Below are positions 27,558 to 41,769 of a DNA stretch of 64,000 nt, one piece after another. The notes beneath the pieces were generated by a model. It saw only the letters and a program-made list of their open reading frames with translations. It was not told the DNA's origin and ran no database searches. The DNA comes from a virus. Position 1 is the stretch's first letter, and each line of letters begins with the position of its first letter. The stretch is from positions 1 through 64,000 of IMG/VR virus record IMGVR_UViG_3300049139_000233; one strand, given 5' to 3'. The position numbers and the translations under genes were made by a program.

Positions 27558-30503
27558 TCACTCCTCTCCGTGTACCTGGCGGGACAGGGACTTGAGGACG
27601 CGGCGGTACGCCCACTGGTCCAGCTCGGCCTCGGTCAGGCCGTCGTGGAGCTGGGGGATACCCGCCGCGACGAGGGCGAGCTGCTGGCTGGAGGCCAGGT
27701 GGGTGCGCAGCTTGGGCACCGGGAAGCCCGGCACGTTCACCGCGAGCAGGCCCACCAGCCGCAGCGATCCGCCGATGCGCCGCCAGTCGCCGGACACCTG
27801 CCCGGCCGCGCGCAGTTCGCGGATGCGGGACTCCGAGGTGCCGGGACGGATGGACCCCGCGACCCAGATGCCGTGCGCGTCGTTGCCGACGGCGACGTCT
27901 GCCACGGCCGCACCCGTGTTGTCGTAGTGGTCGGCGGCGGCCCGGTAGCCGTAGGTCAGCGGCGCGTGCCCGGTGCCCACGGTGATCTGGCCGACCTGGA
28001 CGGAGTCACCGTCCTCGGTCCACACGTTGCCGGTCATGAAGTACGGGTGCGCCTCCTCGTGCGGCGGCGTCACGCATACACCCGCCTGCCCGATGTGGCA
28101 GGTCCCCCACAGTGCGGCGTGCCCGTAGACCCGGCCCTCGGGCGTGACGGTGATGCCGGTCGGGACGGACAGGGCCGGGTTGGTGAACCACGCCGCCGGC
28201 GGGCGCACGGGCGCCTCTACCGTCATGGCCCGCACACGCGGGGCTCGCGTCTCGCGCACCGCGCCGATCGGCTCACCGCCGGCGACAACCGCACCGGTGT
28301 CCGCGTCCAGCAGGGCGATGTACGCCTCGGCGAACGCCGGAATGTCCACGAGCGTCGCCGCGCGGATGCGGCCCTTGTTGAAGACGACCTTCTCCGGGGA
28401 CGCGAACAGCATGTCGAACGGGTCCGGGCCCTCGCCGTCGGCGTCCGGGTCGGCGGGCCACACCAGCTCCATGTCGGCGTCCTTGATGGAGTCGACGTCC
28501 ACGGACACACCGCGCAGGAACTGCCCCTTGATCTTCCCGTGCACGGTGCGGCCATCCTCGGTCGACAGGTCCAGCACACCTTCGCCCATGATCAGGCCGC
28601 CGTCCTCGCGCCAGATCTTGTCGATCCGGCCCACGTTGACGGCGATGGTGCGGGGCTCGCCGCCGTGGCTGTCCTCCTTGTTCCAGCGCAGCGGCAGCGG
28701 CAGGTCTGCCCACGTCAGGGCCTCGGGCTTGAACTCGCGGCCGTCGCCGGTCTCGATGCCCTCCACGGTGAGCGGGCCGCGCCACGGCGCGGTCTCGCCG
28801 TCGGCGCCGATCTCCGCAGCCGGCCGCCCCTCCACCTCCAGAGCATCGGCCGCCGCACCGTGGGCCAGGGTCTCGGCCTGTCCGGCCGCCTTGGCCTCAC
28901 CCGTCTTGACGCATTCGCCGTCGGGGCCCGGTTCCATGCCGGGAGGGCACTGCGCCCCCTCGTCCTGGTTCTCCTTCAGCCGCTTGTCCGCCGGCGTGCC
29001 GGGGTTCGGCTCGCCCTTGGCCAGGGCTTCGGTCGCTTCGGTCGTCATGACCTGCTCTCCTTCCGCCGCGTCCAGTGCGGCCGGTTCGGTGTCGGCACTC
29101 GCCGTGGTCGCCGTGCTCCTGACCTCCTGCCAGACGGCGACGATGAAGCCCCGGCACGCGTTGCCGTAGCGGGCCCCGGTGCAGTCCCGGTAGCCCATGA
29201 CCGGGTACTCGGCCACGGCGGCGTCCAGGGTCGTGAATGTGCGGCCGTCGATCGCCTTGCAGGGGCCGCACGTCCGGCTGTCCAGGATCTCGGAGGCGAC
29301 GTAGCTGGACGCGGGCGGAGCGGCCGTCATCACCGCGTGCCGCCCCGCGTTCTGCGCGGCCGTCATCGCCTGGCCGACGGACGCGCGCACCGTGGTGTCG
29401 TCCACCGTGGACAGCTCGCGGTCCACTTCGGCGGCCACCTGCTCCGACGGGGCGGACGTGCGCAGCAGCCCGGACAACTTCCGCTTGGCGGCCGTCAGCA
29501 GCGCGCCGGACATCAGGTCGCTGGCCAGCTCGGCGACGGAGACCAGCAGGCGCCGGCCGGTGAGCGCCGCCGTGACCGCGTCCTCGTCGCCGTCGGGCAG
29601 CGACCAGTCCGGCACACGCACGCCCTGCGCCTCGGCCTCGCGCTGGCAGGCCCGGCCCGCCTTGACCGCGAACTCCTCCATCAGGCTGACCAAGGTGGCG
29701 GTCGCCGCCTGCCGGTCCAGGGACAGCTCCAGCAACGCGTCCAGGTCGTCGTCGGCCAGGTCCCGAGTGATCTGCTGCCGCAGGTCCAGGCGCCACGCGG
29801 CCGTGACGGACCGCAGCGCGCGCAGGGCCCCGGCCGTCGCCGCCTCCCACTCCGCGTGCACCCCGGCGAAGTCGGCGCGGCTGGCCTCCTCCAGCTCGGT
29901 CGGCTCGCGGCGCAGCGGCCCGGCGGCGGCCGTGACCGGGTCGCCGGTCAGCGGGATGTCGTGGTCCTCGTCGCCGAAGGAGACGCGGATCCGGTCGAAC
30001 GTCACCGGGCCCAGTCGCTGCTCCAGCTCGGGCAGGAACGCGGGGTCGTCGCTGTAGGCGGCGCAGACGTGGGCGACCCAGGGGGTGTGCTGCTCGGGGA
30101 CGTTCGCGGCCGTGGCCCACACAGCTTCCTCGGCCATCTCGTGCGCGGCGCTCAGCGACACCCCGTCAGGGAGATTCCCGACGGACCACACCCAGGACGG
30201 CTCGTCGCCGTCACCGTTCCAATGCGCAGCGCCGAACACCTTGGCCGTGATGGGTGGCAGATCCCGGGACAGCATCCGCATCTCCTCCACCAGGGCCGTG
30301 CGCGCGTCGGCGTCGTGTGCGTCCGTTTTGCCCAAGTAGTAGAGCGTGCAGTGCAGTTCCTCGGCCGGCTCGCCGCCGGGTATCGCCAGACGCTCGGCGT
30401 CCTCGGGCGTCGGCATGAGGGCGATCATGCAGCCCTGCGTGTGCGAGCCGTCGGCGGCGGCCGTCAGCGTCGGCGGGTGCGGGTGGTCACTGTGCGGGGG
30501 CAC
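27558..30503 (-). CDS. fusion protein: 2H phosphoesterase (LigT-like) + MuF-like head morphogenesis domain + prohead protease (alternative start 30428)
   Basis: MIALMP..LHCTLYYLG..WVAHVCAAY (2H). SRTCGPCKAIDGRTF..CRGFIVAVW (MuF C-terminus). LPLRWNKEDSHGG..GVSVDVD..ATLVDIPAFAEA (S78-like). Sits between portal and capsid. Confidence 0.8.
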   Translation of the reverse strand: MPPHSDHPHPPTLTAAADGSHTQGCMIALMPTPEDAERLAIPGGEPAEELHCTLYYLGKTDAHDADARTALVEEMRMLSRDLPPITAKVFGAAHWNGDGDEPSWVWSVGNLPDGVSLSAAHEMAEEAVWATAANVPEQHTPWVAHVCAAYSDDPAFLPELEQRLGPVTFDRIRVSFGDEDHDIPLTGDPVTAAAGPLRREPTELEEASRADFAGVHAEWEAATAGALRALRSVTAAWRLDLRQQITRDLADDDLDALLELSLDRQAATATLVSLMEEFAVKAGRACQREAEAQGVRVPDWSLPDGDEDAVTAALTGRRLLVSVAELASDLMSGALLTAAKRKLSGLLRTSAPSEQVAAEVDRELSTVDDTTVRASVGQAMTAAQNAGRHAVMTAAPPASSYVASEILDSRTCGPCKAIDGRTFTTLDAAVAEYPVMGYRDCTGARYGNACRGFIVAVWQEVRSTATTASADTEPAALDAAEGEQVMTTEATEALAKGEPNPGTPADKRLKENQDEGAQCPPGMEPGPDGECVKTGEAKAAGQAETLAHGAAADALEVEGRPAAEIGADGETAPWRGPLTVEGIETGDGREFKPEALTWADLPLPLRWNKEDSHGGEPRTIAVNVGRIDKIWREDGGLIMGEGVLDLSTEDGRTVHGKIKGQFLRGVSVDVDSIKDADMELVWPADPDADGEGPDPFDMLFASPEKVVFNKGRIRAATLVDIPAFAEAYIALLDADTGAVVAGGEPIGAVRETRAPRVRAMTVEAPVRPPAAWFTNPALSVPTGITVTPEGRVYGHAALWGTCHIGQAGVCVTPPHEEAHPYFMTGNVWTEDGDSVQVGQITVGTGHAPLTYGYRAAADHYDNTGAAVADVAVGNDAHGIWVAGSIRPGTSESRIRELRAAGQVSGDWRRIGGSLRLVGLLAVNVPGFPVPKLRTHLASSQQLALVAAGIPQLHDGLTEAELDQWAYRRVLKSLSRQVHGEE

Positions 30504-32328
30504 GGCCGGTCACCGCCCTCGGCCGCAGAGACGTGGAGATCATGGCGGTGGTGTCGGCGTAGGGGCTGCGGCCGTCGATGACCAGCCGGCCGAAGGCGTC
30601 CAGGTGGCACAGGTACGTGCCGCTGCTGCCCGGCCGGACCGACGGCGCCGCCGTGGCGACCGCGTGCGTGAACGGGCACGAGTACTCGTGCTCACCGCAG
30701 ATGCCCGGGTGGAGCAGGTCCCACCGGCCGGCCGCGCCGACGCGCAGCATGTGCTGCGTGCGGGCCTGCTGCACGAGACGCTGAGCCCGCTCGGCCGTCG
30801 CCTGCTGCGCCGGCGGGCCCGTCTCGTCCTGCGTCGGCGGCGGTTCGTCGCCCCGGGCCGGCCGCGCCGGTGCGGCCTCCTCGGACGACTGCTCGCCTCC
30901 GGGCGGCGGAGTGTTGCCCTGCTGCACGGCCTCGGCGGTGCCAGGGTCCTGCGGGGAGACGGGGACGATCTGCGGGACGTCCTCGCCGATGAGCTGTGCG
31001 AGGGCGGACGCGGCGCCCGACGGCAGGGTGTGGATGATGACCTTGAGAGCCTGCTCTTTCAGGTCGTCGTCCGTCGGCTTGTCCGCCTCGCTGAACCCCA
31101 GCTCCCGGCGGTACGCCTCGCCGGATATCTCCAGCCGGTCGTACGCCAGCGTCGCGTTGCCGCTCCGGTCCGGCCGCAGGGCCAGCTCGGACATGTCGTA
31201 CCAGACGACCCAGGCGGAGGGGTCCTCGCCGGACGCGTCCAGCCGGGGCTGGAGGTAGCCGCGTGTGAGGGCGTCGCAGATCAGCTCGACGGTGGGCGCG
31301 ATGTGCGTCTTCAGCGCGCCCTCTTCCAACTGCCAGGCAGACCAGTGGTTGACGTCGCCCATGCCCAGCAGCACTTCGGCGGGCATGTCCAACTTGGTGG
31401 CCAGACGCTTGATCGCGCTGTCGCGCTTCTCGATGATCTTCTCATCGATCTTCAGGGTGAAGTCGACGTGCTTGACCTTGTCCAGCGCATCGGCCGGGCC
31501 GACCAGCGGAATCGGCACGACGGCGGACGCGGTGCCCGGGTTCTGGATCGCGGTGGCCGCCACCTCGATCCACTCCGCCATCAGCGGGTTGGGCTCGTCG
31601 GCGAACTCGTCGCGGACCGGGAACGACAGCTCATCGGGGAGCAGCACCAGGCCCGCCGACGCGAGCCGTGACAGGTACTCGGACGTGATCTTCCGGTTGA
31701 CCAGCTCCAGCTCCCGCATGATCTCCCGGGCGCTGCGGGCCGGGGAGTCTGCCATGTGGTAGAAGCGGTCGTGCGGTCGCCAGATACGCACCACGTGGTG
31801 GTCGTCGGCCAGCTCCCGCCAGTCCTGGCCGGTGGTGACGCTGTCCTCGTCCATCACCTGGTACCGGCCGGACTGGACGCGGATCTCGTCCACGGAGCGA
31901 ACCTGCCAGCGCTCCGTTTTCCCCACGGTCTCGCCGACCAGGTAGCCCTCACCGGGCAGGGAGAGCTGAACGGCGATGCGTTTCATGAGCTGCGCCTGGC
32001 CGGCGACGCCGCCGCCAAGGCGCATCATCAGCTCGGCGGCCGTTCCGGTCGACACGATCTCGGGCTCGTCAGAGTCCGGGGTGATGCGTCCGGCGCGCAG
32101 GCGCACCCGGCTGAGCATGTTGCTGAACCACCACACACCGTAGTTGAACTCGCCCAGGGTCTCGTGGAACTGCCAGACCTCGTCCTGCCACTTCTCGGTG
32201 CGCCGCAGGAACTTGGTTTCGGGGCCGCGCGGCTCAGATGCAGCAGCGGTCAGGGCCTCGGGCTCGACGGCGGGCAGGGGCGCGGGCGCGTGGACACCTC
32301 GCCCCCGGAAAACGTCGTACCACGGCAC
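30487..32328 (-). CDS. portal protein
   Basis: 613 aa, directly upstream of the MuF/protease and capsid genes. WQDEVWQFHETLGEFNYGVWWFSNMLSRVRL is portal-like. Confidence 0.85.
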   Translation of the reverse strand: MPWYDVFRGRGVHAPAPLPAVEPEALTAAASEPRGPETKFLRRTEKWQDEVWQFHETLGEFNYGVWWFSNMLSRVRLRAGRITPDSDEPEIVSTGTAAELMMRLGGGVAGQAQLMKRIAVQLSLPGEGYLVGETVGKTERWQVRSVDEIRVQSGRYQVMDEDSVTTGQDWRELADDHHVVRIWRPHDRFYHMADSPARSAREIMRELELVNRKITSEYLSRLASAGLVLLPDELSFPVRDEFADEPNPLMAEWIEVAATAIQNPGTASAVVPIPLVGPADALDKVKHVDFTLKIDEKIIEKRDSAIKRLATKLDMPAEVLLGMGDVNHWSAWQLEEGALKTHIAPTVELICDALTRGYLQPRLDASGEDPSAWVVWYDMSELALRPDRSGNATLAYDRLEISGEAYRRELGFSEADKPTDDDLKEQALKVIIHTLPSGAASALAQLIGEDVPQIVPVSPQDPGTAEAVQQGNTPPPGGEQSSEEAAPARPARGDEPPPTQDETGPPAQQATAERAQRLVQQARTQHMLRVGAAGRWDLLHPGICGEHEYSCPFTHAVATAAPSVRPGSSGTYLCHLDAFGRLVIDGRSPYADTTAMISTSLRPRAVTGRAPAQ

Positions 32329-32388: not shown

Positions 32389-33120
32389 TTACGGACGCCC
32401 TGGGCGGTACTGCTTGCCCGGCCCCCGCCGGCGGTTGTCGCGCTGCTCCTGCAACTCTCCGAAGGTCGCCCTGCCTTGGAGCCGGCGCAGGTGGCGGATG
32501 TTGTTCGCCGGGATGCCGACCCTCGGCGGGCCGTAGACGGCCAACAGGTCGGACTCCTCCTGCGAGGCGTAACCGGCCGCAGCGATGGCGTCCTCATCGG
32601 GGAAGACGTCTGCGTGCCGGTCCTGATCGCGGTCGATGAGGTGGTCCTGCGTGCCGCCCAGGGAGTAGCACCACCTGAAGTTCCCTGGCGGGTCCGGTTC
32701 CACGCGCTCACGGAACAGGGCCACTTCCTTGGTGTACGCGTAGAAGGCGGTCGCGGGGGTGGCGCGGATGATCCGCAGCCAGGCGTCCAGGTACTCCGGG
32801 CTCAGGAAGTCGCCGCTGTCGTGGATGCGGACGTGGCGGTCCCGGTAGCGCGGGTGGGTCAGCTCCTCCGCCATCCGCCGTTCCCAGCCGGGCAGGTCAT
32901 CGAGGATCATCGCGAGGTTGCTTTCGTGCGCGGCGAGGACGTTCGGGAAGCGGTAGGTCCCTGACCTGGCGTAACAGAGTTTCGCGCAGGAGCCTGCCGA
33001 CGGGCAGGTGTTGTACGTCCGGCCGTCGGGGAGCCGGCCGGCCCACGCCGGCAGACTCCAGTTGAAGATGCCTTCGCGGCGCAGCTCGCTGTTCTGGCGC
33101 AGCAACCAGTCCCGGGACAC
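32389..33120 (-). CDS. GP88-like Cys-rich protein (TCPSAGSCAKLCYA motif); track start 33219
   Basis: GTG at 33120 is preceded by gcaggaggcagc. The motif resembles the GP88 / DUF5131-type CYA box. Function unknown. Confidence 0.7.
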   Translation of the reverse strand: MSRDWLLRQNSELRREGIFNWSLPAWAGRLPDGRTYNTCPSAGSCAKLCYARSGTYRFPNVLAAHESNLAMILDDLPGWERRMAEELTHPRYRDRHVRIHDSGDFLSPEYLDAWLRIIRATPATAFYAYTKEVALFRERVEPDPPGNFRWCYSLGGTQDHLIDRDQDRHADVFPDEDAIAAAGYASQEESDLLAVYGPPRVGIPANNIRHLRRLQGRATFGELQEQRDNRRRGPGKQYRPGRP

Positions 33121-33268
33121 GCTGCCTCCTGCTGCCGTTCGCACGGGAGTCCCGCCGACCACCACAGCGACGGGACTCCCGCACCCCTGTGCACCCAGAC
33201 CCGAGGAAGTCGGGGTCAACGGGCGGCACCATACGCGTGACGGGCGATATCACCTACTCGCACAGGAA

Positions 33269-33295
33269 AGCCCCGGGACTGGATGTCCCGGGGCT
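33269..33295 (-). terminator. hairpin agccccggga / tcccggggct (copy 1 of a duplicated ~49-nt terminator block)
   Basis: Directly after the stop at 33311. A near-identical block occurs at 33647. Confidence 0.6.
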
Positions 33296-33310
33296 CACGA
33301 GGCGCGGTGG

Positions 33311-33547
33311 TCAGGCGCGGGCGAGGGCGTCCATCGCTTCCTGCTCGTTGGTCCACAGCCCGTCCGCGTCGGCGGGGTTGGTGACCAGCGCGTTGCGGAT
33401 GTCGCGTGCGACGAAGAAGCCCGGGGTCTTCATCGGGAGGACGGCGCCCTTGTATTCCGTGCCGGCGTAAACGGCCTTGGCGAACGGGGTGATGGAGACG
33501 CGGTAAGCGGGGGTGGTGTCCGTGGCGGTGACGAAGCGAGTGTTCAT
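33311..33547 (-). CDS. hypothetical protein (78 aa)
   Basis: Internal ATG of track ORF 33311..33676, preceded by gaccaaggaatgaggaaccgacc. Confidence 0.8.
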   Translation of the reverse strand: MNTRFVTATDTTPAYRVSITPFAKAVYAGTEYKGAVLPMKTPGFFVARDIRNALVTNPADADGLWTNEQEAMDALARA

Positions 33548-33594
33548 GGTCGGTTCCTCATTCCTTGGTCTGTCGGTCCGGTAACCCCGCCCCG

Positions 33595-33612
33595 ATGACT
33601 TAATTAAACCAT
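33595..33612 (-). promoter_or_regulatory. AT-rich palindrome, copy 6
   Basis: Sequence atgacttaattaaaccat, 48 nt upstream of the start at 33547. Confidence 0.55.
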
Positions 33613-33646
33613 AGTTCTCGTACCTGGACAACCCCGGACACAACGA

Positions 33647-33673
33647 AGCCCCGGGACTGGATGTCCCGGGGCT
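33647..33673 (-). terminator. hairpin, copy 2 of the duplicated terminator block
   Basis: Same 31 nt as 33269..33299. Follows the ATP-grasp stop at 33689. Confidence 0.6.
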
Positions 33674-33688
33674 CACGCGGCGCGGCGG

Positions 33689-34696
33689 TCAGGCGTCTGC
33701 ACCCCCTCGCTGCCACGCAGCCCCGGATGATGCGCGGTGGCCACCACCAGGGACGTAGACGTGGGTCGCGAGAGCGGTCTGCACGAGGTGGTCGGAGATG
33801 GCCCGCGCGATGACCATGCCGGTGGCGGCCTCCACGAACCCCCACTGGCCGGCCGGGTTCGCCTCCAGGAACCACCACGTGCCGTCCCGGTCGACCGCGA
33901 AGTCCAGGGCCGCGTACTCCAGGTGCAGCTCGCGCATCAACCGCATGACCTTGTGGGCCAGCGGCTGGCTGAGCCCCACGGCCTCGAACCTCAGACCGTC
34001 CTCGGGCACGGCCCGCCAGTCGAGCGCGTTGCCCGCAGTGATCCGGCACGGGAACATCCGGTCGCCGACCACGGTCAGCCGGATGTCGTACGCCTTGTCC
34101 ACCGGCTGCTGGAAGTAGCACATGGACTGGCGCACGCTGTCGGCGCCTTCCTTGATCTCCCCGGCGGTCACCATCCGCGCCTGGACGAACCGGTCGGGGT
34201 GGGCCGTGAGCGTCTTGCACACGACCCGTCCGCCCTGCTCGCGGGCGAACTCGGCGGCCTGGGCCGGGTCGTTGGTGTACAGCGCCGGCGGGGTGCGGAA
34301 GCCGAGCGATGCGGCCAGCCGCAACTGCCGGGGCCCCGGCCGGGCCTGGAGAGCCCGGACGGGGTGGTTGACCCAGAGCACGTTGTCGAGGCCGTACAAG
34401 AAGTCGTCCAGGATGACCCGGGACTCCTGCTGCTCCCACGTGCCGGGCGGCTCCGGGTGCCACCAGAACACCGACACGACCGACTGGGAGAGCGTGGTGC
34501 GGTGCTCGTCCTCAACCCGGAACCGCAGCGGTTCCCCGTCCGAAAGGCCCGTCATCCGCAGGACCCCCGGACGTGCGAGGTCTGCGGGGTCGATGCGGTG
34601 CACGACGACCTCGCGCTCCTGGATCTGCCGTATCACCAGGTCGGCACCGAGGTCGTCGGGCGCGGTGACCACGAGCACAGTCGGCGGGAGTGGCAT
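33689..34696 (-). CDS. ATP-grasp RiPP maturase (graspetide / microviridin MdnC-MvdD-like ligase)
   Basis: N-terminal VLVVTAPDDLGADLVIRQI..VHRIDPADL and C-terminal YAALDFAVDRDGTWWFLEANPAGQW. The ATG overlaps the precursor stop (TGATG). Confidence 0.8.
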   Translation of the reverse strand: MPLPPTVLVVTAPDDLGADLVIRQIQEREVVVHRIDPADLARPGVLRMTGLSDGEPLRFRVEDEHRTTLSQSVVSVFWWHPEPPGTWEQQESRVILDDFLYGLDNVLWVNHPVRALQARPGPRQLRLAASLGFRTPPALYTNDPAQAAEFAREQGGRVVCKTLTAHPDRFVQARMVTAGEIKEGADSVRQSMCYFQQPVDKAYDIRLTVVGDRMFPCRITAGNALDWRAVPEDGLRFEAVGLSQPLAHKVMRLMRELHLEYAALDFAVDRDGTWWFLEANPAGQWGFVEAATGMVIARAISDHLVQTALATHVYVPGGGHRASSGAAWQRGGADA

Positions 34697-34953
34697 CAGT
34701 CGTCGTCCTTCTTCAGTCCGGTGGCGTTGTGGGTCATGGTCGGGCCGACCAGCATGTACGAGGTCGAGAAATCGTCGTCCTTGCGGAACCCCTGGTGGTT
34801 GTGCGTGTGCGTGGTGGCCCGGATGTCGGCGACGTCCACCACGGCGTCACCGGACGAGGTGACGTTGAGCTGGCGGAGCGGGTCGTAGGTGAACGCAGGC
34901 GTCCGGTCGGCGGGCGGCGCGGGGGTCTCGGCGAGAAGCGCGAAGGCAGTCAT
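34696..34953 (-). CDS. graspetide precursor peptide with two tandem core motifs (85 aa; track start 35037)
   Basis: TTHTHNHQGFRKDDD and TMTHNATGLKKDDD at the C-terminus. ATG at 34953 is preceded by gaagggttacttc. Translationally coupled to the ATP-grasp gene. Confidence 0.7.
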   Translation of the reverse strand: MTAFALLAETPAPPADRTPAFTYDPLRQLNVTSSGDAVVDVADIRATTHTHNHQGFRKDDDFSTSYMLVGPTMTHNATGLKKDDD

Positions 34954-35048
34954 GAAGTAACCCTTCGAGTGGGGCCGTTCGGGCACGGCCCGTTCCTGTG
35001 TTCCGTGTTCCGTGCGCGTCGCCGGGCGGGTCGACAATCCCGGCGATC

Positions 35049-35066
35049 ATGGATTAATTAAACCAT
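35049..35066 (-). promoter_or_regulatory. AT-rich palindrome, copy 7 (upstream of the graspetide cassette)
   Basis: Sequence atggattaattaaaccat, the reverse complement of 37572..37589. Confidence 0.55.
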
Positions 35067-35149
35067 GGTTGTGTGATGCACGCAACCCCTGAACACGCCA
35101 AAGCCCCGGTGCCTTTCCGGCCCGGGGCTCAGGGTTGGGTGGCAGCCGG

Positions 35150-36430
35150 TCACAGCCGCGCGGCCACCTGCTCGCGCAGCTCGGCGGCGGCCGGCGAGTC
35201 GGGGACCGACGGCAGCCGTGCAGCCACCGTGGCCAGGCCGTCGGAGATCTTCGTGGACTGAACGCCGGCGGAGCACTCCAGGAAGTCGGACCACGTCGCC
35301 AGCGCCTCGCCCGTGTTCCCCCGCTTGAGCTGCACGTGACCGAGGTCCGCCAGCACGATGGCGCGGGTACGCCGGCGGTCCAGACCGTGGATGTCCAGGG
35401 AGAGGTGCAGGTGCTCCTCGGCGGCGGCCAGGTCGCCGAGCCGGGCGAGGATCATCCCCGATTCGTGAGCCCACCGGCCGTGGCTGTAGTGGCTCGCCCA
35501 CGACTGCCCCGGCGCGGCCGGTGCGTGCTCCATGGCGCCCTGCGCGGCGGACAGCATCCGAGCCGCCGTGGCACGGTCGCCGTCGGCGGCCTTCGCGCGG
35601 GCGAGCGTGTTGCGGTAGTAGGCCAGGGCCTTCGGGTTGTCCAGTCGCCGCCCGCGCTCCTCGCACGCCTCCGCCAGACGCACGGCGGTGGGGACGTGGC
35701 CGAGGTCGATGGCCTGGTCCGCGAGACCGCGCAGCGCCGTCGCTGCCAGCTCGTTCTCCCCGGCCTCGGTGGCCAACCGCACGCTGTGCACGAGGTAGCG
35801 CTGGCTCAGCCCCACACTGCCCTCGTCCCGGGCCATCCACCCGATGAGGTGCACCAGTTCCGCCGTCGCCGCGAACAACTCGCGGCCGACCTTCTCGGTG
35901 TACTTCCCGTCCAGCCAGCGGCGAACGTCCTCGGTCAGGTAGCGCACGGCGAGGTGCCGCGCGTGCCCGCCGCCCAGCTCCGACGCCGCGTCGCCCAGGG
36001 TGCCGGTCATCGTGCGCACGGCGGAGACCTCGCCCATGCCGACGGCCACCGGCCCCGGGCGCGCCACGCGCCGGGTGACCGCGTCGGTGTCCGGCAGGTC
36101 GAGCGCTGCGAGCCCGGCGGCGGCCGACGCGGTCAGGAAAGTGCGGCGGTCCACGTCGTCTCCCCCAAGGGTCATCACAGAGGTCACGGTGTCGTCCGGG
36201 GCCGGGCTGTCTCCGCCCCGTGAGAGGTCCAGGCCCAGGGCCTGCTCGATGTACGGCAGCCATTCCACCGGCACGCGCCGGCCGGTCTCCCACCGGTACA
36301 CCTGCTGACGGTCGCAGAACCCCCGGCTGCCCCAACGCAGTTCCGATAACTGGTCCGCGAGGGCGGCCTGGCTGCACCGTGGCCGCCGGGCCTCTCGGGC
36401 GGCGCGGATGCGTTCGCCGATTGTCGACAT
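35150..36430 (-). CDS. XRE-family HTH regulator with a C-terminal TPR-like domain (prophage repressor candidate)
   Basis: N-terminal IGERIRAAREARRPRCSQAALADQL..QQVYRWETG HTH. Long helical-repeat C-terminus. Divergent operator-bearing intergenic region. Confidence 0.8.
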   Translation of the reverse strand: MSTIGERIRAAREARRPRCSQAALADQLSELRWGSRGFCDRQQVYRWETGRRVPVEWLPYIEQALGLDLSRGGDSPAPDDTVTSVMTLGGDDVDRRTFLTASAAAGLAALDLPDTDAVTRRVARPGPVAVGMGEVSAVRTMTGTLGDAASELGGGHARHLAVRYLTEDVRRWLDGKYTEKVGRELFAATAELVHLIGWMARDEGSVGLSQRYLVHSVRLATEAGENELAATALRGLADQAIDLGHVPTAVRLAEACEERGRRLDNPKALAYYRNTLARAKAADGDRATAARMLSAAQGAMEHAPAAPGQSWASHYSHGRWAHESGMILARLGDLAAAEEHLHLSLDIHGLDRRRTRAIVLADLGHVQLKRGNTGEALATWSDFLECSAGVQSTKISDGLATVAARLPSVPDSPAAAELREQVAARL

Positions 36431-36464
36431 GTCGTTTCCTCGGTCTCTGGTCTGTGGTCCACAT

Positions 36465-36498
36465 CTGGCCTACGCCTGGCCTACAGTCTGGCAGCTAC
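36465..36498. promoter_or_regulatory. three direct repeats CTGGCCTAC / CTGGCCTAC / CTGGCAGCTAC at ~11-nt spacing (operator candidate)
   Basis: Located in the 124-bp divergent region between the repressor and 36555..36935. TTGACT-17 nt-TACGGA lies just downstream. Confidence 0.45.
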
Positions 36499-36554
36499 TC
36501 CCGGACCGGGGCAGGGCGTTGACTGGTCATCACACGACGACTACGGAGGACAGC

Positions 36555-36935
36555 ATGCCCGGCACCCTCGCCCTTCCCACCTTGACGAAGACCGCCCGCC
36601 GCGCGGCGGAGATCCACGGCGCCTGGGCGGCCGACCCTGCGATGCCGGACGTCGCCGGGTGCATGGCCGACGCCGTCCGGGTCCTCGCCATCCGGGCCGC
36701 CGTGCACGAGACGACCGGCGACGCCAGTGCGGCGGCCCTCCCGGCGCCGGCGGCCGTGGAGCTGTCCGGCCGGCTGCTGGAGCGCCAGTTCCCCGAGCTG
36801 TCCCAGGTCGCGGAGCGCAGCGGACACGCCCTCGTCCACGGGGCCGACGGCGGCCGGTGGGAGCCCGGCGACTTCCTGCACCGCGTCTACGCCGAGGCGT
36901 TCGGCCCGGTGACGGGGCGGCACTGGCCGGTGTGA
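36555..36935 (+). CDS. hypothetical protein divergent from the repressor (126 aa)
   Basis: Internal ATG of track ORF 36408..36935, preceded by ggaggacagc. Confidence 0.75.
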   Translation: MPGTLALPTLTKTARRAAEIHGAWAADPAMPDVAGCMADAVRVLAIRAAVHETTGDASAAALPAPAAVELSGRLLERQFPELSQVAERSGHALVHGADGGRWEPGDFLHRVYAEAFGPVTGRHWPV

Positions 36936-36952
36936 CAGCGGCCGGACAACGG

Positions 36953-36990
36953 CGAAGCCCCGGGACCTGTGGTGGAGTCCCGGGGCTTCG
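36953..36990. terminator. bidirectional hairpin
   Basis: Stem cgaagccccgggac / gtcccggggcttcg between convergent genes. Confidence 0.6.
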
Positions 36991-37002
36991 CCGTGCCTGC
37001 GG

Positions 37003-37380
37003 TCAGGGGCGGGGGACTTCCTTCTCCACGCGGCCGACGGCGTCCAGGCCGGTCATCACCAGGTGGATGCTGTTGGCGATGTCCATGAGCAGGTCACCGG
37101 CCCGGCCGCGCTCCTCACTCACCTCGCGAGTCTCGATGGTGCGGTGGTTGATGCGGCGGACACCGGCGAGGCGGGAGCCGGTGCGGCCAATGCGGGCGGC
37201 CAGGCCGGACAGCGGGTTGTTCTCGTCGTAGCGGTAGCCGTAGCCGTCGGCGGTGATGTAGTCGATGATGCCGGGGATGCCGTAGACCTTGTGCTCGGCC
37301 AGGGTGTCCGCGTAGTGGCTCAGGATGGCGCCGATGTAGAGCATGGCGGGGGCGGCGGCGCGGGTGGCGGTGGCGGTCAT
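37003..37380 (-). CDS. hypothetical protein (125 aa)
   Basis: Internal ATG of track ORF 37003..37479, preceded by gaccaaggaatgaggaaccgaag. Confidence 0.8.
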   Translation of the reverse strand: MTATATRAAAPAMLYIGAILSHYADTLAEHKVYGIPGIIDYITADGYGYRYDENNPLSGLAARIGRTGSRLAGVRRINHRTIETREVSEERGRAGDLLMDIANSIHLVMTGLDAVGRVEKEVPRP

Positions 37381-37427
37381 CTTCGGTTCCTCATTCCTTG
37401 GTCGGTCGGTGCGGTGTCCCCGTCCCG

Positions 37428-37445
37428 ATGAATTAATTAAACCAT
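37428..37445 (-). promoter_or_regulatory. AT-rich palindrome, copy 8
   Basis: Sequence atgaattaattaaaccat, 48 nt upstream of the start at 37380. Confidence 0.55.
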
Positions 37446-37571
37446 GGGGTCTCGCAAAGAACAACCCGGAGGATGGCACGGAACCTGTCTGCCGCAGAAT
37501 CGCTCCTGGCGAAGCGCAAAACGTGTGTTTTGAGCGCGCCCGGTTCTCGGGGTTGCGCGGCAGGGGTCGGC

Positions 37572-37589
37572 ATGGTTTAATTAATCCAT
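37572..37589 (+). promoter_or_regulatory. AT-rich palindrome, copy 9
   Basis: Sequence atggtttaattaatccat, 30 nt upstream of the ATG at 37619. Back-to-back with copy 8. Confidence 0.55.
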
Positions 37590-37618
37590 GGGTTCACCGA
37601 CCAGGGAACGAGGACCGC

Positions 37619-37849
37619 ATGAGCGCTCAGACCACCACGTGCACGGAGAAGACGGCCAGCCGATGGCACTCGCCCGACCCGTTCGGGGTCTGGGGTGAGC
37701 GTGACCCGAACCCGGTGGACCCGGGCCCGTACCGCGACGGCGAGACCATCGAGTGCCGGACGTGCGGTGCCACCGTCGTCGTGACGCACCGGATCACCAA
37801 CAAGCGCGCGACCGGCACGCAGTACGTCGGCGACCTCGCCGCGCACTGA
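37619..37849 (+). CDS. hypothetical protein (76 aa)
   Basis: Internal ATG of track ORF 37343..37849, preceded by ccagggaacgaggaccgc. Confidence 0.8.
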   Translation: MSAQTTTCTEKTASRWHSPDPFGVWGERDPNPVDPGPYRDGETIECRTCGATVVVTHRITNKRATGTQYVGDLAAH

Positions 37850-37860
37850 CCTCAGACGCG

Positions 37861-37895
37861 GAGAAGCCCCGCCGGACCGCCCGGCGGGGCTTCTC
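37861..37895 (+). terminator. GC hairpin
   Basis: Stem gagaagccccgccgg / ccggcggggcttctc. Confidence 0.55.
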
Positions 37896-37939
37896 CGCTT
37901 CCCAGGCAGCCCACAGGCTGGAAGGTAGGCTCATCGTAC

Positions 37940-39022
37940 GTGACCACCACGATCACGACCACCGGCGCCGGCAGTCCCCTCCTCGCCTCCGCGATGCACG
38001 ACCACCTCGCCTCCCTGCGCGAGCGGCTTGGCGTGGTCCGGCCGCGCGACCGCCGCACCCGCCGGCTCAGCCCGCCGGTGTACCGGCTGGACCTGCTGCA
38101 CGAGCTGGTGGAGCGCGAGACGTTCGAGCACGTCGTCACCTGGCTGCGGTCGCGCCGCTCCGACGGCACCGCCCGGGAGTACGCGGATGACGTCCGGCAC
38201 TGGGCCCTGGCCGGGCGGGAGTTGTGCGGCACCGAGCCGTGGTACCTCGGCTCCATCACCCCGGACGTCATTCCGGTGTGGCGCGGATGGGCGACGGAGG
38301 ATCTGGGGCTGCGCGGCCGGCGGGTCAACCGGCTCTGCTCCTCTCTCACCTCGCTGATCGAATGGGTGAAGTACCAGACCCGCCAGGAGCTGATCCACCC
38401 CATCACCCGGTACGACCGGTTCAAGGTCGACCCGGACGACGAGTCGTCCATGACCCCGATCCTGGAAGTCGCCGAGCTGCAAGCCGTGCTGAACGCGTGC
38501 GACACGGCCCGGCAGGCGTTCGCGGTCTCCCTGATCTACACCCTGGCAGGCCGCGTCTCGGAGTGCTGCGACGCCGGCGCGGATGACCTGTCCTCGGAGT
38601 CGGGGACGTGCGTGCTCACCTTGCGGCGCAAGGGCGGCAAGACGGTGCCGTTCCCGCTGCCGGCGGAGCTGTGCGAGCTGGGCGCGGCGGCCTGGCGGGG
38701 CAGCACGAGCACGGCGCTCCTGCTCGATGACGACGGCCGGCCGATGGACCGGCACGCGGTGGACCGGCTGCTCAACCGCCTCGGCCGGACGGCCGGTGTC
38801 CTGCCCGGCCGGGACCTCACCCCTCACGTCCTGCGCGCGAGCAAGCTGACCCACATGTACGACGAGGGCACGGCGCCGGACGACATCCGCCGGTTCGCCG
38901 ACCACGCGAACGTCTCCACGACCATGCGGTACATCCGGCGCCGCACGAACGCGGGTCTGCGCGCGAAGCACACGCAAGCGGCCGTGAAGGTGTACGAGGG
39001 CCTGGTGAACCGGTTCCTGTGA
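37940..39022 (+). CDS. int: tyrosine integrase / site-specific recombinase
   Basis: LAGRVSE (R), HVLRAS (H-x-x-R), HANVSTTMRYI (H..Y) catalytic pattern. 360 aa. Confidence 0.85.
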   Translation: MTTTITTTGAGSPLLASAMHDHLASLRERLGVVRPRDRRTRRLSPPVYRLDLLHELVERETFEHVVTWLRSRRSDGTAREYADDVRHWALAGRELCGTEPWYLGSITPDVIPVWRGWATEDLGLRGRRVNRLCSSLTSLIEWVKYQTRQELIHPITRYDRFKVDPDDESSMTPILEVAELQAVLNACDTARQAFAVSLIYTLAGRVSECCDAGADDLSSESGTCVLTLRRKGGKTVPFPLPAELCELGAAAWRGSTSTALLLDDDGRPMDRHAVDRLLNRLGRTAGVLPGRDLTPHVLRASKLTHMYDEGTAPDDIRRFADHANVSTTMRYIRRRTNAGLRAKHTQAAVKVYEGLVNRFL

Positions 39023-39030
39023 CACGACGA

Positions 39031-39058
39031 AGCCCCGGAGTCACGGGACTCCGGGGCT
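39031..39058. terminator. bidirectional hairpin
   Basis: Stem agccccggagtc / gactccggggct between int and the convergent gene. Confidence 0.55.
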
Positions 39059-39080
39059 GGTCTGCGGGCAGGGACCGTGG

Positions 39081-39362
39081 TCAGGCGCGGGAGACGCGTA
39101 CGTAGGTGCCGGTGACGGCGTCGCCGGCGACCCAGTTGCCCTCACGCTTCCAGCCGTTCGCGGTGAGGACGGAGTCCGCCTCGGCGTACGGGCCGTCGGG
39201 CTCCGCGCCCATGACGTAGTCCACGCTGTCGCCGGTCAGCCGGATCGTCTCCGACAGCACGGCGTCCTTGCCTTCCCGGCCGCCGTACATCGTGACGCCC
39301 TCGAAGACCTCCACGCGGGCCGTGTCGTCGGATTCAGCGGTGAGGTACGCGCGAGTCTGCAT
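39081..39362 (-). CDS. hypothetical protein (93 aa)
   Basis: Internal ATG of track ORF 39081..39425, preceded by ggaggaactgacc. Confidence 0.8.
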   Translation of the reverse strand: MQTRAYLTAESDDTARVEVFEGVTMYGGREGKDAVLSETIRLTGDSVDYVMGAEPDGPYAEADSVLTANGWKREGNWVAGDAVTGTYVRVSRA

Positions 39363-39388
39363 GGTCAGTTCCTCCGTGGTCCGTGTTC

Positions 39389-39406
39389 CTGATTTGATTA
39401 AATCAT
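39389..39406 (-). promoter_or_regulatory. AT-rich palindrome, copy 10 (degenerate)
   Basis: Sequence ctgatttgattaaatcat, 27 nt upstream of the start at 39362. Overlaps the exonuclease stop. Confidence 0.45.
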
Positions 39407-40674
39407 GCTTCGGCCGGGACGGCAACCCCGGCCGCCATCTCCCGCAGCCGGTCCACGACCGCGCGGCAGTCCGACGCGGCCCGGTGGTCCCCGCCGTACA
39501 GCGGCTGCCAGCGGTAACCGCCGTGGTAGTCGGACCACTCCCCCACCCAGTCGGAGTAGGGCACCATCACGTCCTCGAACCGCAGCGTCTCCAGCCACGC
39601 GGCGGCCGAGGCGGCGGGGTCGTCGTGCCCGGCCTCGCGGTAGTGCAGCGTCAGCTCGTGCCGCAGCCGGCCGACGTCGAACCCCCGGTTGTAGACCAGG
39701 CACCGCCGGTTGATCAGTGCGCCGGTGAGCTGCACCAGGACTTCTCCGAACCGGGGCTTCCCCCGCACGTCCGCGTCGGTGATGCCGTGGACGTCTGCCG
39801 CCTCGGCCGGAATCGGCTCGCCCGGGTCGAGCAGCGTGTCCACCAGGACCTCGCCGCCGACGGTCACCACGGCGATGTCCACGATGCGCGCCCCGTCGTG
39901 CAGCCCGGACGTCTCCGTGTCCAGGACGACCGTGCGCGGATCGGCGAGGGCGTCCCGCGCCCACGCCGACAGGTCCGCGACCTCACAGCGACGGGCTTCA
40001 TCAACCCGGCGCGCGTTCTCCGCGTCCTCGCGGCGCCGGGTCTCCTGCCAGCGGCCGTACGCCTCGGCACACGGCGGGCACCGCCGTGGTTCCCGCCAGG
40101 TCCCGGCCGCCCGCGCAGCGTCGATCTCCTCGTCCGTCACCGTCTGCGCCGTGCACTCGTGGCCCGGGTATCCGGGGCAGGTACGGCGCCACGCGGCGGC
40201 CCGCTCGTCGGCGAGCTGCTTGCAGAGCGCATAGCGGATCCGGCACGGGTCGCACGACGGCCAGCCGTGCACGTCCCTCGGCAGCGCGGCCCCGGCCTCG
40301 CGCCGGCACCTCTCGCAGGTGCGTGCCCACCGGTCCTGCGCTTCCTGCTGCGCCCGTGTCTGGCAGTCGGTGCACCGGGTGTAGACGACGTACCCGCGCA
40401 CCTCCTTGCACTCCGGGCAGGTGCGGCGGGACGTCATCGCGGTGCGCTGCTTCGCGGACAGCGGGCGCATCGCCGCTGCGCCGGCGGGGTCGTACATCGG
40501 GAACTCGCCCCAGCCGTGTCCGCGCCGGTACACCCGCAGCAGGGCCACCGGCTCCTGGCCGTCGGCCGGCTTGAGCCGGTCCGCCTTCAGCTCCGTCCGG
40601 GTGCGCAGATGCTGGTGGTGCTCGGGGATGTCCCGGCGCTCATAGACCGGGAGCGACGTGGTGGTGTCGGTCAT
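39403..40674 (-). CDS. multi-zinc-finger N-terminal domain fused to a DnaQ-like DEDDh 3'-5' exonuclease
   Basis: Several CxxC pairs in the N-terminal half. VVLDTETSGL (Exo I), VYNRGFDVGRL (Exo II), GGDHRAASDC (Exo III, H-x4-D). Confidence 0.8.
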   Translation of the reverse strand: MTDTTTSLPVYERRDIPEHHQHLRTRTELKADRLKPADGQEPVALLRVYRRGHGWGEFPMYDPAGAAAMRPLSAKQRTAMTSRRTCPECKEVRGYVVYTRCTDCQTRAQQEAQDRWARTCERCRREAGAALPRDVHGWPSCDPCRIRYALCKQLADERAAAWRRTCPGYPGHECTAQTVTDEEIDAARAAGTWREPRRCPPCAEAYGRWQETRRREDAENARRVDEARRCEVADLSAWARDALADPRTVVLDTETSGLHDGARIVDIAVVTVGGEVLVDTLLDPGEPIPAEAADVHGITDADVRGKPRFGEVLVQLTGALINRRCLVYNRGFDVGRLRHELTLHYREAGHDDPAASAAAWLETLRFEDVMVPYSDWVGEWSDYHGGYRWQPLYGGDHRAASDCRAVVDRLREMAAGVAVPAEA

Positions 40675-40709
40675 ATCGGGAAGGTACCGCGAGGCACTGA
40701 CAACCGAGG

Positions 40710-40943
40710 TCAGTTCGGGGCGCGCAGTCGGTAGTCCGGGCACTTGCCGGGGTCACCCCACGGCGCCTTGTGAGGCTTGGTGCTTCCGCACCAGGGGCAC
40801 GGGAGCACCGGGCGGGCCTGGCTTCCCTCGATCCCGCAGTACCCGGCGTCGCCGAACTCGGCGTTGCTGTAGACGACGATGGCCGGACGGCCGCAGGTGC
40901 ACAGCTCGCCGGGTGCGGCGAGTCGCTCTGTCGAGTCGGTCAC
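40710..40943 (-). CDS. small zinc-binding protein (77 aa)
   Basis: Track ORF. CTCG ... CPWCG. Confidence 0.7.
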   Translation of the reverse strand: MTDSTERLAAPGELCTCGRPAIVVYSNAEFGDAGYCGIEGSQARPVLPCPWCGSTKPHKAPWGDPGKCPDYRLRAPN

Positions 40944-41191
40944 CGCCCGGCCTCTCGAACGCCGGCGACGACCCCGTCCAGGAACGCGTACACGCTCGCT
41001 CGGTCCATTGGGCTCTGGCCACTGCCGCCCACGTGCACCGAGTACCTGTCGTCGTCCAGGTCGATGACGTGGATGCGCAACCCGGTCTCACAGGCCGCGA
41101 CGCCAGCGGTCCACTGAACCTCCAGATGAGGGGGCCAGTTCGGGTCATACGGCGGGTTGTGGCTGCCATCGGGGTTCCGCGTCACGTCCAT
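40940..41191 (-). CDS. hypothetical protein (83 aa; start uncertain)
   Basis: Internal ATG of track ORF 40940..41299, chosen to avoid overlap with the upstream gene. Confidence 0.6.
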   Translation of the reverse strand: MDVTRNPDGSHNPPYDPNWPPHLEVQWTAGVAACETGLRIHVIDLDDDRYSVHVGGSGQSPMDRASVYAFLDGVVAGVREAGR

Positions 41192-41222
41192 GGCCTGCAG
41201 ACTACCGGCCGCCGACGGCCCG

Positions 41223-41654
41223 TCAGGCCCATTCCCGCGAGGCGAGCAGGGCCGCGCCGGCCCACACTGCGCCCCACACGAGGGCAGGGGCTGGGACACC
41301 GACGGTGAGGGCGACGGCGGCGGTGACGGCGGCGGACAGCCAGCCGGACACGCACCACGGGCAGGTGATCAGCTCGGCCAGCCAGTACGGGGACCAACGG
41401 ACCCGGCGCACGTACCGGTTCGTCTGGCCGTCGATGAGCGTCAGCGTGCCGAGCTGAGGGTGCCGGACGAACGGCTCGTCGTCCGTCGGACGGGCCGGGG
41501 CCCACTTCTCCTGCTCCGGTTCCGTCAGCGGGCGCCAGCCGCCGGCGAGGCGGTCGCGCAGCCAGAGCACCGGCGGGAAGGTGTCGCGGGCGGCGAGGCG
41601 GGAGGCGCGGTACGAGGCGAGGATCATGCAGGCGATGAGCAGCCAGGTGGGCAC
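41223..41654 (-). CDS. DUF1360-like membrane protein
   Basis: TM segments plus LITCPWCVSGWLSA motif. Confidence 0.7.
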   Translation of the reverse strand: MPTWLLIACMILASYRASRLAARDTFPPVLWLRDRLAGGWRPLTEPEQEKWAPARPTDDEPFVRHPQLGTLTLIDGQTNRYVRRVRWSPYWLAELITCPWCVSGWLSAAVTAAVALTVGVPAPALVWGAVWAGAALLASREWA

Positions 41655-41769
41655 TGTCGTGGCTCCGTGGTCCGTGGACGGGACGCCCTGTCGGGCGACG
41701 TGTTGGAGGTGGTCACCAGGCCGAGCGCCCCGCCGTAGGAGAGACGTTCCGCCTGGTGTGCCGGTTGCG

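Follow-up and report, generated by a model that had tools for sequence, protein, structure and literature searches.

What does a tailed phage make with a small peptide gene and an adjoining ATP-grasp gene close to its portal gene? The question is posed by the minus strand of positions 33647-35066 in IMG/VR virus record IMGVR_UViG_3300049139_000233, of which positions 1 to 64,000 (64,000 nucleotides, hereafter the window) were analyzed. A first-pass annotation had read this two-gene operon as a phage-borne cassette for a graspetide, a peptide that is made on the ribosome and modified after translation (RiPP), with omega-ester or omega-amide cross-links. Our analysis leads to the same identification, a phage-carried graspetide operon, which we hold at a probability of roughly 80%. 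The carrier appears to be a temperate, Streptomyces-type siphophage lineage with the pair as long-standing cargo. Every open reading frame (ORF), core and overlap coordinate given at first pass was recovered when the sequence was re-read, and the pair is laid out as follows.

34696-34953, minus strand: precursor gene, 85 aa, MTAFALLAETPAPPADRTPAFTYDPLRQLNVTSSGDAVVDVADIRATTHTHNHQGFRKDDDFSTSYMLVGPTMTHNATGLKKDDD
34816-34953, minus strand: leader, residues 1-46, with the motif FALL...DRTP.(F/Y)x(Y/F)D...Q(L/V)N
34771-34815, minus strand: core repeat 1, residues 47-61, TTHTHNHQGFRKDDD, T-T-H-T-H-N-H-Q-G-F-R-K-D-D-D
34741-34770, minus strand: linker, variable, with an invariant G70-P71 at its end
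34699-34740, minus strand: core repeat 2, residues 72-85, at the C-terminus, TMTHNATGLKKDDD, T-M-T-H-N-A-T-G-L-K-K-D-D-D
33689-34696, minus strand: ATP-grasp gene, 335 aa

The locus combines the features by which graspetide systems are recognized, namely a ligase of the MdnB/MdnC/PruB type and an adjacent precursor with a leader, Ser/Thr/Lys donors and Asp/Glu acceptors. Both frames have the pattern of real genes in a window of 71% GC, with a GC content at third codon positions of 0.88 for the precursor and 0.85-0.88 across the two. The TGA of the precursor and the ATG of the ligase have base 34696 in common (TGATG), the stop/start overlap originally proposed between the 85-aa and 335-aa ORFs, and this one-base overlap fits translational coupling. 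A tight junction (gap or overlap of 0-2 nt) and the same gene order are retained on different backbones.

The enzyme was compared with sequence models, known structures and its own homologues. Among NCBIfam models it scores highest with TIGR04187 (GRASP_SAV_5884 ATP-grasp ribosomal peptide maturase), reaching 257.9 bits, with 138 bits for MvdC, 90 for MvdD, 44 for rimK_fam (cut-off 143) and 29 for LysX. All six PDB sequences matched at E <0.001 (9bou, 5ig8, 7m4s, 5ig9, 7mgv and 7drm) are graspetide ligases, comprising 9bou, MdnB, AMdnB, MdnC, CdnC and PsnB. An AlphaFold2 (AF2) model built with 40 homologues reached a predicted local distance difference test score (pLDDT) of 89.8 and a predicted template modelling score of 0.85. 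Its top Foldseek match was PruB of S. coelicolor (9bou; E 1.6e-28, 32% identity), and ranks 1-32 were occupied entirely by graspetide ligase chains (PruB, AMdnB, MdnC, MdnB, CdnC and PsnB), with RimK, LysX and ArgX appearing only from rank 33 (E ~1e-15). Across the 40 homologues (alignment A4), K161, R206, T208, D226, R228, D265 and N280 are invariant and E278 nearly so; these are the presumed nucleotide- and Mg-binding positions. Q196 and K201 are invariant as well, as are W227 and E278 in alignment A1. By its predicted fold, conserved ATP-grasp residues and closest relatives, the enzyme is best assigned as a graspetide macrocyclase. The original label of "MdnC/MvdD-like" is right as to a graspetide-type ATP-grasp ligase but not as to the nearest kin, since the closest characterized relative is PruB, of the prunipeptin type. 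The C-terminal tail (33689-33760, residues ~313-335) is disordered, with pLDDT <50, and carries a conserved P-G-G-G-H-R-A-S-S motif; among aligned relatives, this GHR(A/Q)SS tail occurs only in the clade of the window's ligase and in its sister P0030.

These data also bear on whether the enzyme is instead RimK-like, or another ligase acting on a non-RiPP substrate, with the small ORF incidental. Such a reading could appeal to the ligase's only PHROG match, phrog_2599 (E 6e-13), which is labelled "ribosomal protein S6 glutaminyl transferase" and through which standard phage annotation would mislabel the enzyme. No significant Pfam ATP-grasp match was found for the ligase, and its clade is without a precomputed Pfam match and named "hypothetical protein" in source databases. 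Yet the ligase reaches 44 bits with the RimK model and 258 with the graspetide one, RimK, LysX and ArgX are outranked by 32 chains of graspetide ligases, and the upstream ORF is conserved, coupled and equipped with a Strep_pep-type leader and donor/acceptor cores. A RimK-like function was rejected on these model scores, Foldseek ranks and the conserved precursor, and we regard it as highly improbable. The clustering with RimK- or glutathione-synthetase-like clades that the first-pass annotation had named as counter-evidence was not observed.

The case for the small ORF as a precursor rests on repetition and conservation. Both cores fit [TS]xTHNxxGx[KR]KDDD over 14-15 residues, and the internal repeat scores 50 (BLOSUM62, ungapped) against 21.5 +/- 4.1 for shuffled sequences, with 1 of 2000 shuffles reaching 50. 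A search of 5.8 billion proteins returned 18 relatives, 85-91 aa long and all named "hypothetical protein", in which both of the core copies noted at first pass are retained. In the resulting 19-sequence alignment, the invariant leader columns are A5, L6, L7, P11, D16, R17, P19, D24, Q28, N30, G35, V38 and D40. Core 1 has T50, H51, N52, G55, D59, D60 and D61 invariant, with T48 and K58 nearly so, and core 2 has T74, H75, N76, K81, K82, D83, D84 and D85 invariant. Because all homologues open with M/V-T-(x)-FALL, the start codon of the precursor can be regarded as fixed. Pairwise dS between precursors is ~0.3-0.9, with a median dN/dS of 0.45.

A profile search of 1.84 billion cluster representatives gave only 13 matches, so the family is rare. 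These matches include single-core forms of 45-64 aa, in which the leader is joined directly to FGP-[ST]-[MY]-T-x-N-S-x-G-x-K-K-D-D-D. To judge from the sequences, the single core looks ancestral and equivalent to core 2, with the two-core form a duplication. In looser members the His is replaceable (TITTNSSGTKKDDD, SYTVNSSGTTKDDD and SMTINSSGSKKDDD), while [ST]-x-T, N, G, K and DDD remain constant.

Profile searches of both ORFs, suggested at first pass, placed the precursor with known graspetide targets. TIGR04187 was the best model for the ligase, and TIGR04186 (GRASP_targ; 20.5 bits) and PF14404 (Strep_pep; 20.1 bits) matched the precursor, all below cut-off, the precursor matches being sub-threshold but specific. 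They span mainly the leader and reach into core 1 (residues 9-61 and 1-50, respectively). In the AF2 model of the precursor, the leader forms a small hairpin (residues 22-24/29-31), and residues 11-40, taken in blocks of ten, average pLDDT 74-80. Modest leader structure with disordered cores is typical of RiPP precursors. The leader motif is the presumed recognition element for the ligase. The early description of the small ORF as a two-core, coupled precursor is borne out, and the precursor is moreover conserved, with 18 homologues and a leader of the Strep_pep/PruA type.

The closest known system is the prunipeptin-type PruA/PruB pair of Streptomyces, which likewise joins a precursor to an ATP-grasp ligase without peptidase or exporter, as at locus L097. 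Unno and Kodani reportedly described the prunipeptin cluster in 2021 as two genes lacking both of these functions. PruB (PDB 9BOU) is the best sequence and fold match to the window's ligase. PruB itself is 80-85% identical to a common Streptomyces group named "ATP-grasp ribosomal peptide maturase", and the window's ligase is 32% identical to PruB and 34-38% identical to that group. At L097, a true PF14404 precursor, MQPFALNYARPAAELEVTAPYAYDSGLQLNVLRDGRIAASDLALMRELGTTTSTAGSKTHFDD, lies beside a PruB homologue, and its leader is homologous to that of the window (blastp 1e-5; hhalign 86% over 36 columns). The homology is confined to the leader, FAL...(Y/F)xYD...QLNV...G, and the arrangement of the cores shows no relationship. 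Both peptides have donors rich in Thr, a Lys and an acidic stretch at the C-terminus. In contrast, the PruA-type core is a single C-terminal TTTSTAGSKTHFDD, a reference taken not from published PruA but from a locus encoding a ligase with 85% identity to PruB, whereas the window peptide carries [ST]xTHNxxGx[KR]KDDD twice and so falls outside the prunipeptin core type. The settings differ too, with the window's clade in phages and mobile elements and the PruA/PruB type in a chromosomal context. On sequence comparison, the window pair is best described as a divergent sister of the PruA/PruB type, with the same leader logic and a new core.

Other graspetide families are more distant. Multi-core graspetides such as plesiocin and thuringinin (groups 2 and 3, Lee et al. 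2020) likewise pair several cores with one ligase, and the plesiocin-type ligase PsnB (7drm) is a fold match to the window's enzyme. They differ in their leaders, in cores of TTxxxxEE and similar form (PMC11626197) with Glu acceptors, in their hosts (Bacillus, myxobacteria and proteobacteria) and in the C39 peptidase/ABC exporter that they often carry. Microviridins (MdnA/MdnB/MdnC), which serve as the standard example of protease inhibition, have the ligase fold in common with the window (5ig8 and 5ig9) and would share its ester-plus-amide chemistry, but use two dedicated ligases that are 22-27% identical to the window's, the leader PFFARFL and the core TxKxPSDx(E/D)(D/E), along with an acetyltransferase and a transporter, and are cyanobacterial or from Bacteroidetes.

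These comparisons suggest a chemical logic for the pair. The ligase would bind the leader motif F/Y-x-Y/F-D-x-x-x-Q-L/V-N and use ATP to convert the Asp side-chain carboxylates in the DDD triplet of either core into acyl phosphates. Capture would then be by two conserved hydroxyls ([ST]-x-T) and perhaps also by the conserved Lys. Our preferred topology, modelled on the plesiocin-type hairpin, is one small stem-loop per core, in which the N-x-x-G turn is framed by esters T3-D12 and T1-D14. Each peptide would thereby carry two bicyclic modules, with 4-6 dehydrations in total. The cross-links, their number and their topology, as deduced from the sequence, are much less certain than the identification of the system. 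Searches of neighboring genes by profile and family found no protease, transporter or methyltransferase gene in the cassette flanks, in line with the first-pass description; the neighbors are an NsdA-like regulator, a small ORF and a GP88-family gene. Since no peptidase or exporter is encoded, the product, either leader-attached or trimmed by host proteases, would be expected to act inside the cell or to be released when the phage lyses it.

The element that carries this pair has terminase, portal, major capsid, tail and lysis genes together with an integrase, the gene set of a tailed temperate phage. Its phage nature, assumed at first pass, is evident from the following genes, to which the window adds tail proteins, amidase and NlpC/P60 lysins.

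30487-32328: portal, phrog_776, E 2e-131
43068-44585: large terminase
Within the window: major head protein, phrog_777, E 2e-120
27558-30503: head-morphogenesis fusion, 981 aa, RNA-ligase-like at the N-terminus and matching PHROG families for portal and head-maturation protease
35150-36430, minus strand: NsdA-family helix-turn-helix/tetratricopeptide-repeat (HTH-TPR) regulator directly upstream of the cassette, NF053720, 299 bits
37940-39022, plus strand: tyrosine integrase
39403-40743: RNase T/DEDDh exonuclease, with PADLOC matches to Cas-associated DEDDh and PDC-S48 models
46694-47839: GDP-mannose-dehydratase/epimerase-like gene
50875-51549: QueC (7-deazaguanine pathway)
57994-62520: primase-helicase-PolA fusion, 1508 aa (DUF3854/D5 primase-helicase/PolA)
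2453-2551: tRNA-Ser(CGA)

Terminase and portal do flank the cassette, as first proposed, but ~10.7 kb lie between them and also hold the exonuclease, the tyrosine integrase and regulators. An integration module between large terminase and portal (36408-43000) is itself an unusual placement, conserved in L001. The carrier is far from described phages. The 12 kb around the cassette gave no megablast match among 50,697 phage records, and the portal is at most 36% identical to that of any deposited phage, leaving the element without an annotated close relative. The neighboring NsdA-like regulator, 88% identical in L028/L047/L052, possibly regulates the cassette; its conservation does not extend to every relative, and in L001 a GntR regulator takes its place. 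In the L043 prophage an HTH_31/TPR protein lies upstream, identified by Pfam domains only, with no similarity to the window's regulator tested or detected. Separately, an HTH_31-DUF5753 regulator and a DUF397 protein recur, non-syntenically, 1-7 kb from the ligase in L002, L042, L044, L096 and L098, and the HTH_31-DUF5753 family is associated with actinobacterial graspetide loci (PMC8939145).

How long the phage lineage has held the cassette can be judged from its relatives. The ligase clade, monophyletic in a neighbor-joining tree, comprises ~29 relatives at at least 61% identity; the next identity is 46%, and chromosomal maturases stand at 42% or less. In six related contigs of 64-96 kb (L001/L048, L028/L047, L049, L050, L051 and L052; IMG/VR viral contigs and S. 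africanus), the pair lies directly upstream of (GP88 and) portal. There the ATP-grasp proteins are 78-80% identical and the portals 82-85%, with 81% for the terminase in L001, the only locus in range. Isolate assemblies also hold relatives, including S. africanus (92,743 bp) and Streptomyces sp. NRRL S-455 (95,726 bp). The composition of the pair is no different from that of the rest of the phage. The pair has therefore diverged about as much as portal and terminase, which points to long-resident cargo and not to a recent moron. "Temperate-phage moron", the original term, was apt as to phage-borne cargo, but "moron" misleads given this matching divergence. Recent acquisition was rejected because there is no compositional anomaly and divergence is similar to that of the backbone, and a host-flank artefact of prophage calling was rejected because the pair is internal, between terminase and portal.

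Phage or mobile-element genes were present in 9 of 9 contexts examined, of which L003 and L043 are clearly phage or prophage. On the different phage backbone of L003, the pair (80% identical) lies by an integrase with holin, amidase and Dit genes; in the integrated prophage L043, it accompanies tape-measure, CHAP, RusA and DnaB genes. The L002, L042, L044 and L098 pairs are near integrase, Lsr2, DUF3987, polyvalent-protein or IS605/restriction-modification genes, and the sister L096 is near a serine recombinase and a small terminase. Judged by these sequence contexts, the cassette appears to have moved to other phage backbones as well. One record, L003/L004 (JBQQCR010000003.1, 126,646 bp, labelled plasmid), contains the cassette and its neighbors twice, 87,785 bp apart, and is probably a concatemer or over-assembly of an ~88 kb element, circular or terminally redundant, with holin, amidase and tail genes.

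Scans of one genome per species and of Joint Genome Institute metagenomes yielded only one close relative, L028, the other close relatives having been reached through exact-protein matches. PLSDB held no close relative of the window's clade, although 89 of its plasmids carry distant ones, and a plasmid origin for the clade is not supported given the lack of a close PLSDB relative. Ligases of this kind occur at 49 loci in IMG/VR, many at contig ends, and at least one locus appears to be plasmid. This is L083 (IMGVR_UViG_2917802685_000001, 154,158 bp), for which NZ_CP041653.1 (Streptomyces sp. RLB1-9) has a matching ATP-grasp gene at the same position. The 33-37% identical IMG/VR matches, many at contig ends, were left out of our count of phage-borne cassettes. 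With many distant matches lying within a few kb of contig ends and L083 plasmid-like, counts of "viral" graspetide loci in IMG/VR are inflated.

The same relatives raise the question of whether the pair is inert, a hitch-hiker from a bacterial chromosome or plasmid that is no longer selected. Two decayed copies speak for this. L044 (8100-11014) has the ligase without a precursor and an IS605-family transposase directly upstream, in a restriction-modification/IS island, and L043 (9750-9998) has a degenerate first core (AQAVKKDGG) with the second intact. Distant graspetide clusters are also common on Streptomyces plasmids. Against it, the ~29 enzymes and 18 precursors have intact frames, residues of the cores and those presumed to be catalytic do not vary despite a dS of ~0.5 (dN/dS ~0.45), the position is conserved across the lineage and the composition is like that of the rest of the phage. 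We therefore consider inert cargo improbable, if somewhat less so than a RimK-like enzyme, and favor a functional, maintained graspetide operon.

The following candidate control signals surround the pair.

35101-35130, minus strand: GC-rich hairpin (GCCCCGG...CCGGGGC), downstream of the upstream regulator gene, a terminator-like insulator before the cassette promoter
35057-35085, minus strand: sigma-70/HrdB-type promoter-like module with extended -10; -35 TTGCGT at 35085-35080, -10 TTTAAT at 35062-35057
35048-35067: 20-bp palindrome CATGGTTTAATTAATCCATG, overlapping the -10 and 100% complementary to a copy at 37571-37590
34954-35047, minus strand: 5' untranslated leader, with a Shine-Dalgarno-like GAAGGG 9-14 nt before the ATG
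33647-33673, minus strand: terminator-like hairpin closing the operon, with a 12-bp GC stem and 5-nt loop, followed by TTCGTTGTGT

The AT-rich palindrome reported upstream at first pass is real, with its extent corrected from 35049-35066 to 35048-35067. The downstream hairpin stands as described, its 12-bp GC stem lying in a 71-nt stretch with a folding energy of -40.9 kcal/mol (z = -3.7). In 33100-36700, simple scans for promoters and terminators made no calls; the signals emerged from repetition and alignment. The promoter scan missed the cassette module because its -35 matches the consensus at only 3 of 6 positions, and the terminator scan missed the hairpin because it has no T-run.

The cassette module, whose spacer of 17 nt between -35 and -10 ends in TGG (35065-35063), is one of eight near-identical promoter-like modules in the window (at 554, 1878, 4403, 33600, 35054, 37433, 37577 and 57721). 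Aligned to the downstream gene, the eight read TTGnnn-N14-TGG-TTTAAT-TAA, with TTG, TG and TTTAATTAA invariant. Their core motif occurs 12 times in the window, where 0 occurrences would be expected, the -10 sits inside a 20-bp palindrome CATGGWTTAATTAAWCCATG, and the AT-rich octamer TTAATTAA is absent from the 71% GC window outside these modules. A GC hairpin often comes before the module and a conserved 5' leader after it, and in L049, L050 and L051 a module is likewise conserved, ~395-434 nt upstream of the gene for the ATP-grasp enzyme. From its sequence, the palindrome over the -10 is a possible operator at which a dimeric phage regulator would bind, and the eight modules may form a phage-wide regulon with a common operator. 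Since the ligase gene is followed directly by a hairpin and then by the next promoter module, the pair can be regarded as an insulated unit with a control signal common to seven other units. The notion of a self-contained cassette is sustained by the promoter-like module upstream and the terminator-like hairpin downstream.

Similar architecture recurs around the cassette. A 57-nt copy of the terminator-like hairpin, 91% identical, lies at 33261-33317 after the next gene, and terminator-like GC hairpin modules recur at 33261-33317, 33639-33695 and 36949-36994. A 122-nt 5' leader is repeated at 72% identity (33491-33612 versus 37324-37445), ending ...CCAAGGAAnGAGGAACCGAnnATG. In this region, small genes seem to be organized as terminator-promoter-leader cassettes. 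ORF 33311-33676 probably begins at the ATG at 33547 (78 aa).

Several observations weigh against the identification or its details. Both proteins score under curated cut-offs, the ligase at 257.9 bits against 350 for TIGR04187 and the precursor under the 25 bits of both TIGR04186 and PF14404. The cores are disordered in the AF2 model (pLDDT <50), giving no computational support for the hairpin topology, and the conserved Lys stands directly beside the DDD triplet, an awkward position for a lactam. No leader peptidase or exporter that would account for maturation and release is present. The cassette can decay, as the lost precursor of L044 and degenerate first core of L043 indicate, and its promoter is proposed only from eight-fold repetition and resemblance to a consensus. 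Protease inhibition by the product would be speculative, a pure analogy with characterized graspetides.

Whether phages are an established home for such pathways depends on where they have been sought. Graspetides form a growing RiPP class whose characterized members, to our knowledge, all come from cellular genomes. The literature searched describes no phage-encoded graspetide, and the first-pass annotation likewise knew of no characterized one, though unannotated cassettes exist in GenBank and IMG/VR. A survey of phage databases, another early suggestion, found close relatives in IMG/VR, and GenBank phage records offered two distant, unannotated cassettes, KF114876.1 (L045, 2658-4559) and MT835913.1 (L046, 2404-5081). 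KF114876.1 (Leptospira LE1-like) encodes a 106-aa precursor with three TKTxTxxExDD cores and an ELTYDRKSGLNF leader, its ATP-grasp gene being annotated "RimK-like", and MT835913.1 encodes a 184-aa precursor with five T/SxxxxQEGxDD cores. As in the window, repeated T...D/E cores lie directly upstream of, and the precursor gene overlaps, a graspetide-type ATP-grasp gene, and the TYD...LN motif of the KF114876 leader resembles that of the window. The ligases are nevertheless only 26-29% identical to the window's and the core motifs differ. In both, an overlapping ORF of 207 or 383 aa follows the ligase, with hydrophobic stretches (by eye) that suggest a membrane protein. One is a ParB-bearing phage-plasmid-like element and the other an unverified metagenomic scaffold.

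RiPP pathways of other kinds are known as mobile cargo; sublancin, for example, is encoded on the SPbeta prophage. Class I lanthipeptide clusters occur in Streptomyces prophages, and a survey of 2112 actinobacterial prophages found clusters in 13, naming class I lanthipeptides and type III polyketide synthases (PMC10023795). Grasp-with-SPASM graspetide clusters reside on integrative and conjugative elements (ICEs) of Porphyromonas, having previously not been recognized as mobile-element encoded (bioRxiv 10.64898/2026.08.04.741601). These prophage and ICE clusters are likewise mobile-element cargo, but they belong to another RiPP class or element and come with exporters, and none is a graspetide in a tailed phage. 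What is new here is the core and the phage-lineage-conserved setting, not the kind of system.

As to function, characterized graspetides are protease inhibitors (PMC11626197; bioRxiv 10.64898/2026.08.04.741601), and the first-pass proposals of lysogenic conversion or a counter-defence protease inhibitor are, by that analogy, speculation. One possibility, which we advance tentatively, is a benefit to the phage itself, in which peptide made during infection blocks a host or defence protease of the Lon, Clp or FtsH type, or shields virions from the abundant secreted Streptomyces proteases. Phage inhibitors of host proteases do exist, among them T4 PinA and lambda CIII. The position of the pair beside the portal gene, on the structural-gene strand, across the lineage and with divergence about equal to that of the backbone is compatible with such a role. 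So are the absence of exporter and peptidase, which fits intracellular action or release by lysis, and the presence of the same promoter-like module at seven other small phage units. Less favorable is that ligase, precursor and direct neighbors gave no PADLOC-DB defence-model match and the cassette matched no known anti-defence family; single-core relatives, moreover, also occur in elements that may not be phages.

The beneficiary could equally tentatively be the lysogen, with a protease inhibitor or signal expressed from the prophage acting on competitors, superinfecting phages or Streptomyces development. An autonomous unit with promoter-like and terminator-like signals, near integrase and regulator genes, would suit lysogenic conversion, as would its movement between unrelated phage backbones and its place next to an NsdA-family regulator, from a family named after the transcriptional repressor NsdA. 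There is precedent in the class I lanthipeptide RiPP clusters reported from Streptomyces prophages (PMC10023795). The pair nonetheless lacks an exporter or immunity gene, its core has no known activity, and the palindrome over the -10 hints that the unit is repressed in some state.

A Streptomyces phage lineage, possibly extrachromosomal, may thus have kept a graspetide over the long term because the two-module peptide serves the phage, by inhibiting a host or defence protease or by shielding virions, an account we put forward only as one of several candidates. If it is true, the pair would be the first graspetide encoded by a phage, and no RiPP before it would have been shown to act as a phage effector instead of a bacteriocin. 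Because the clade falls under both cut-offs, is labelled "hypothetical" and has a RimK-like family as its sole PHROG match, phage-borne graspetide cassettes have probably been overlooked. The compact two-gene, two-core pathway would offer a new core scaffold for graspetide chemistry, easily tested through expression of only two genes, and a setting in which to examine how a RiPP serves a phage, whether in lysogenic conversion, anti-defence or virion protection.

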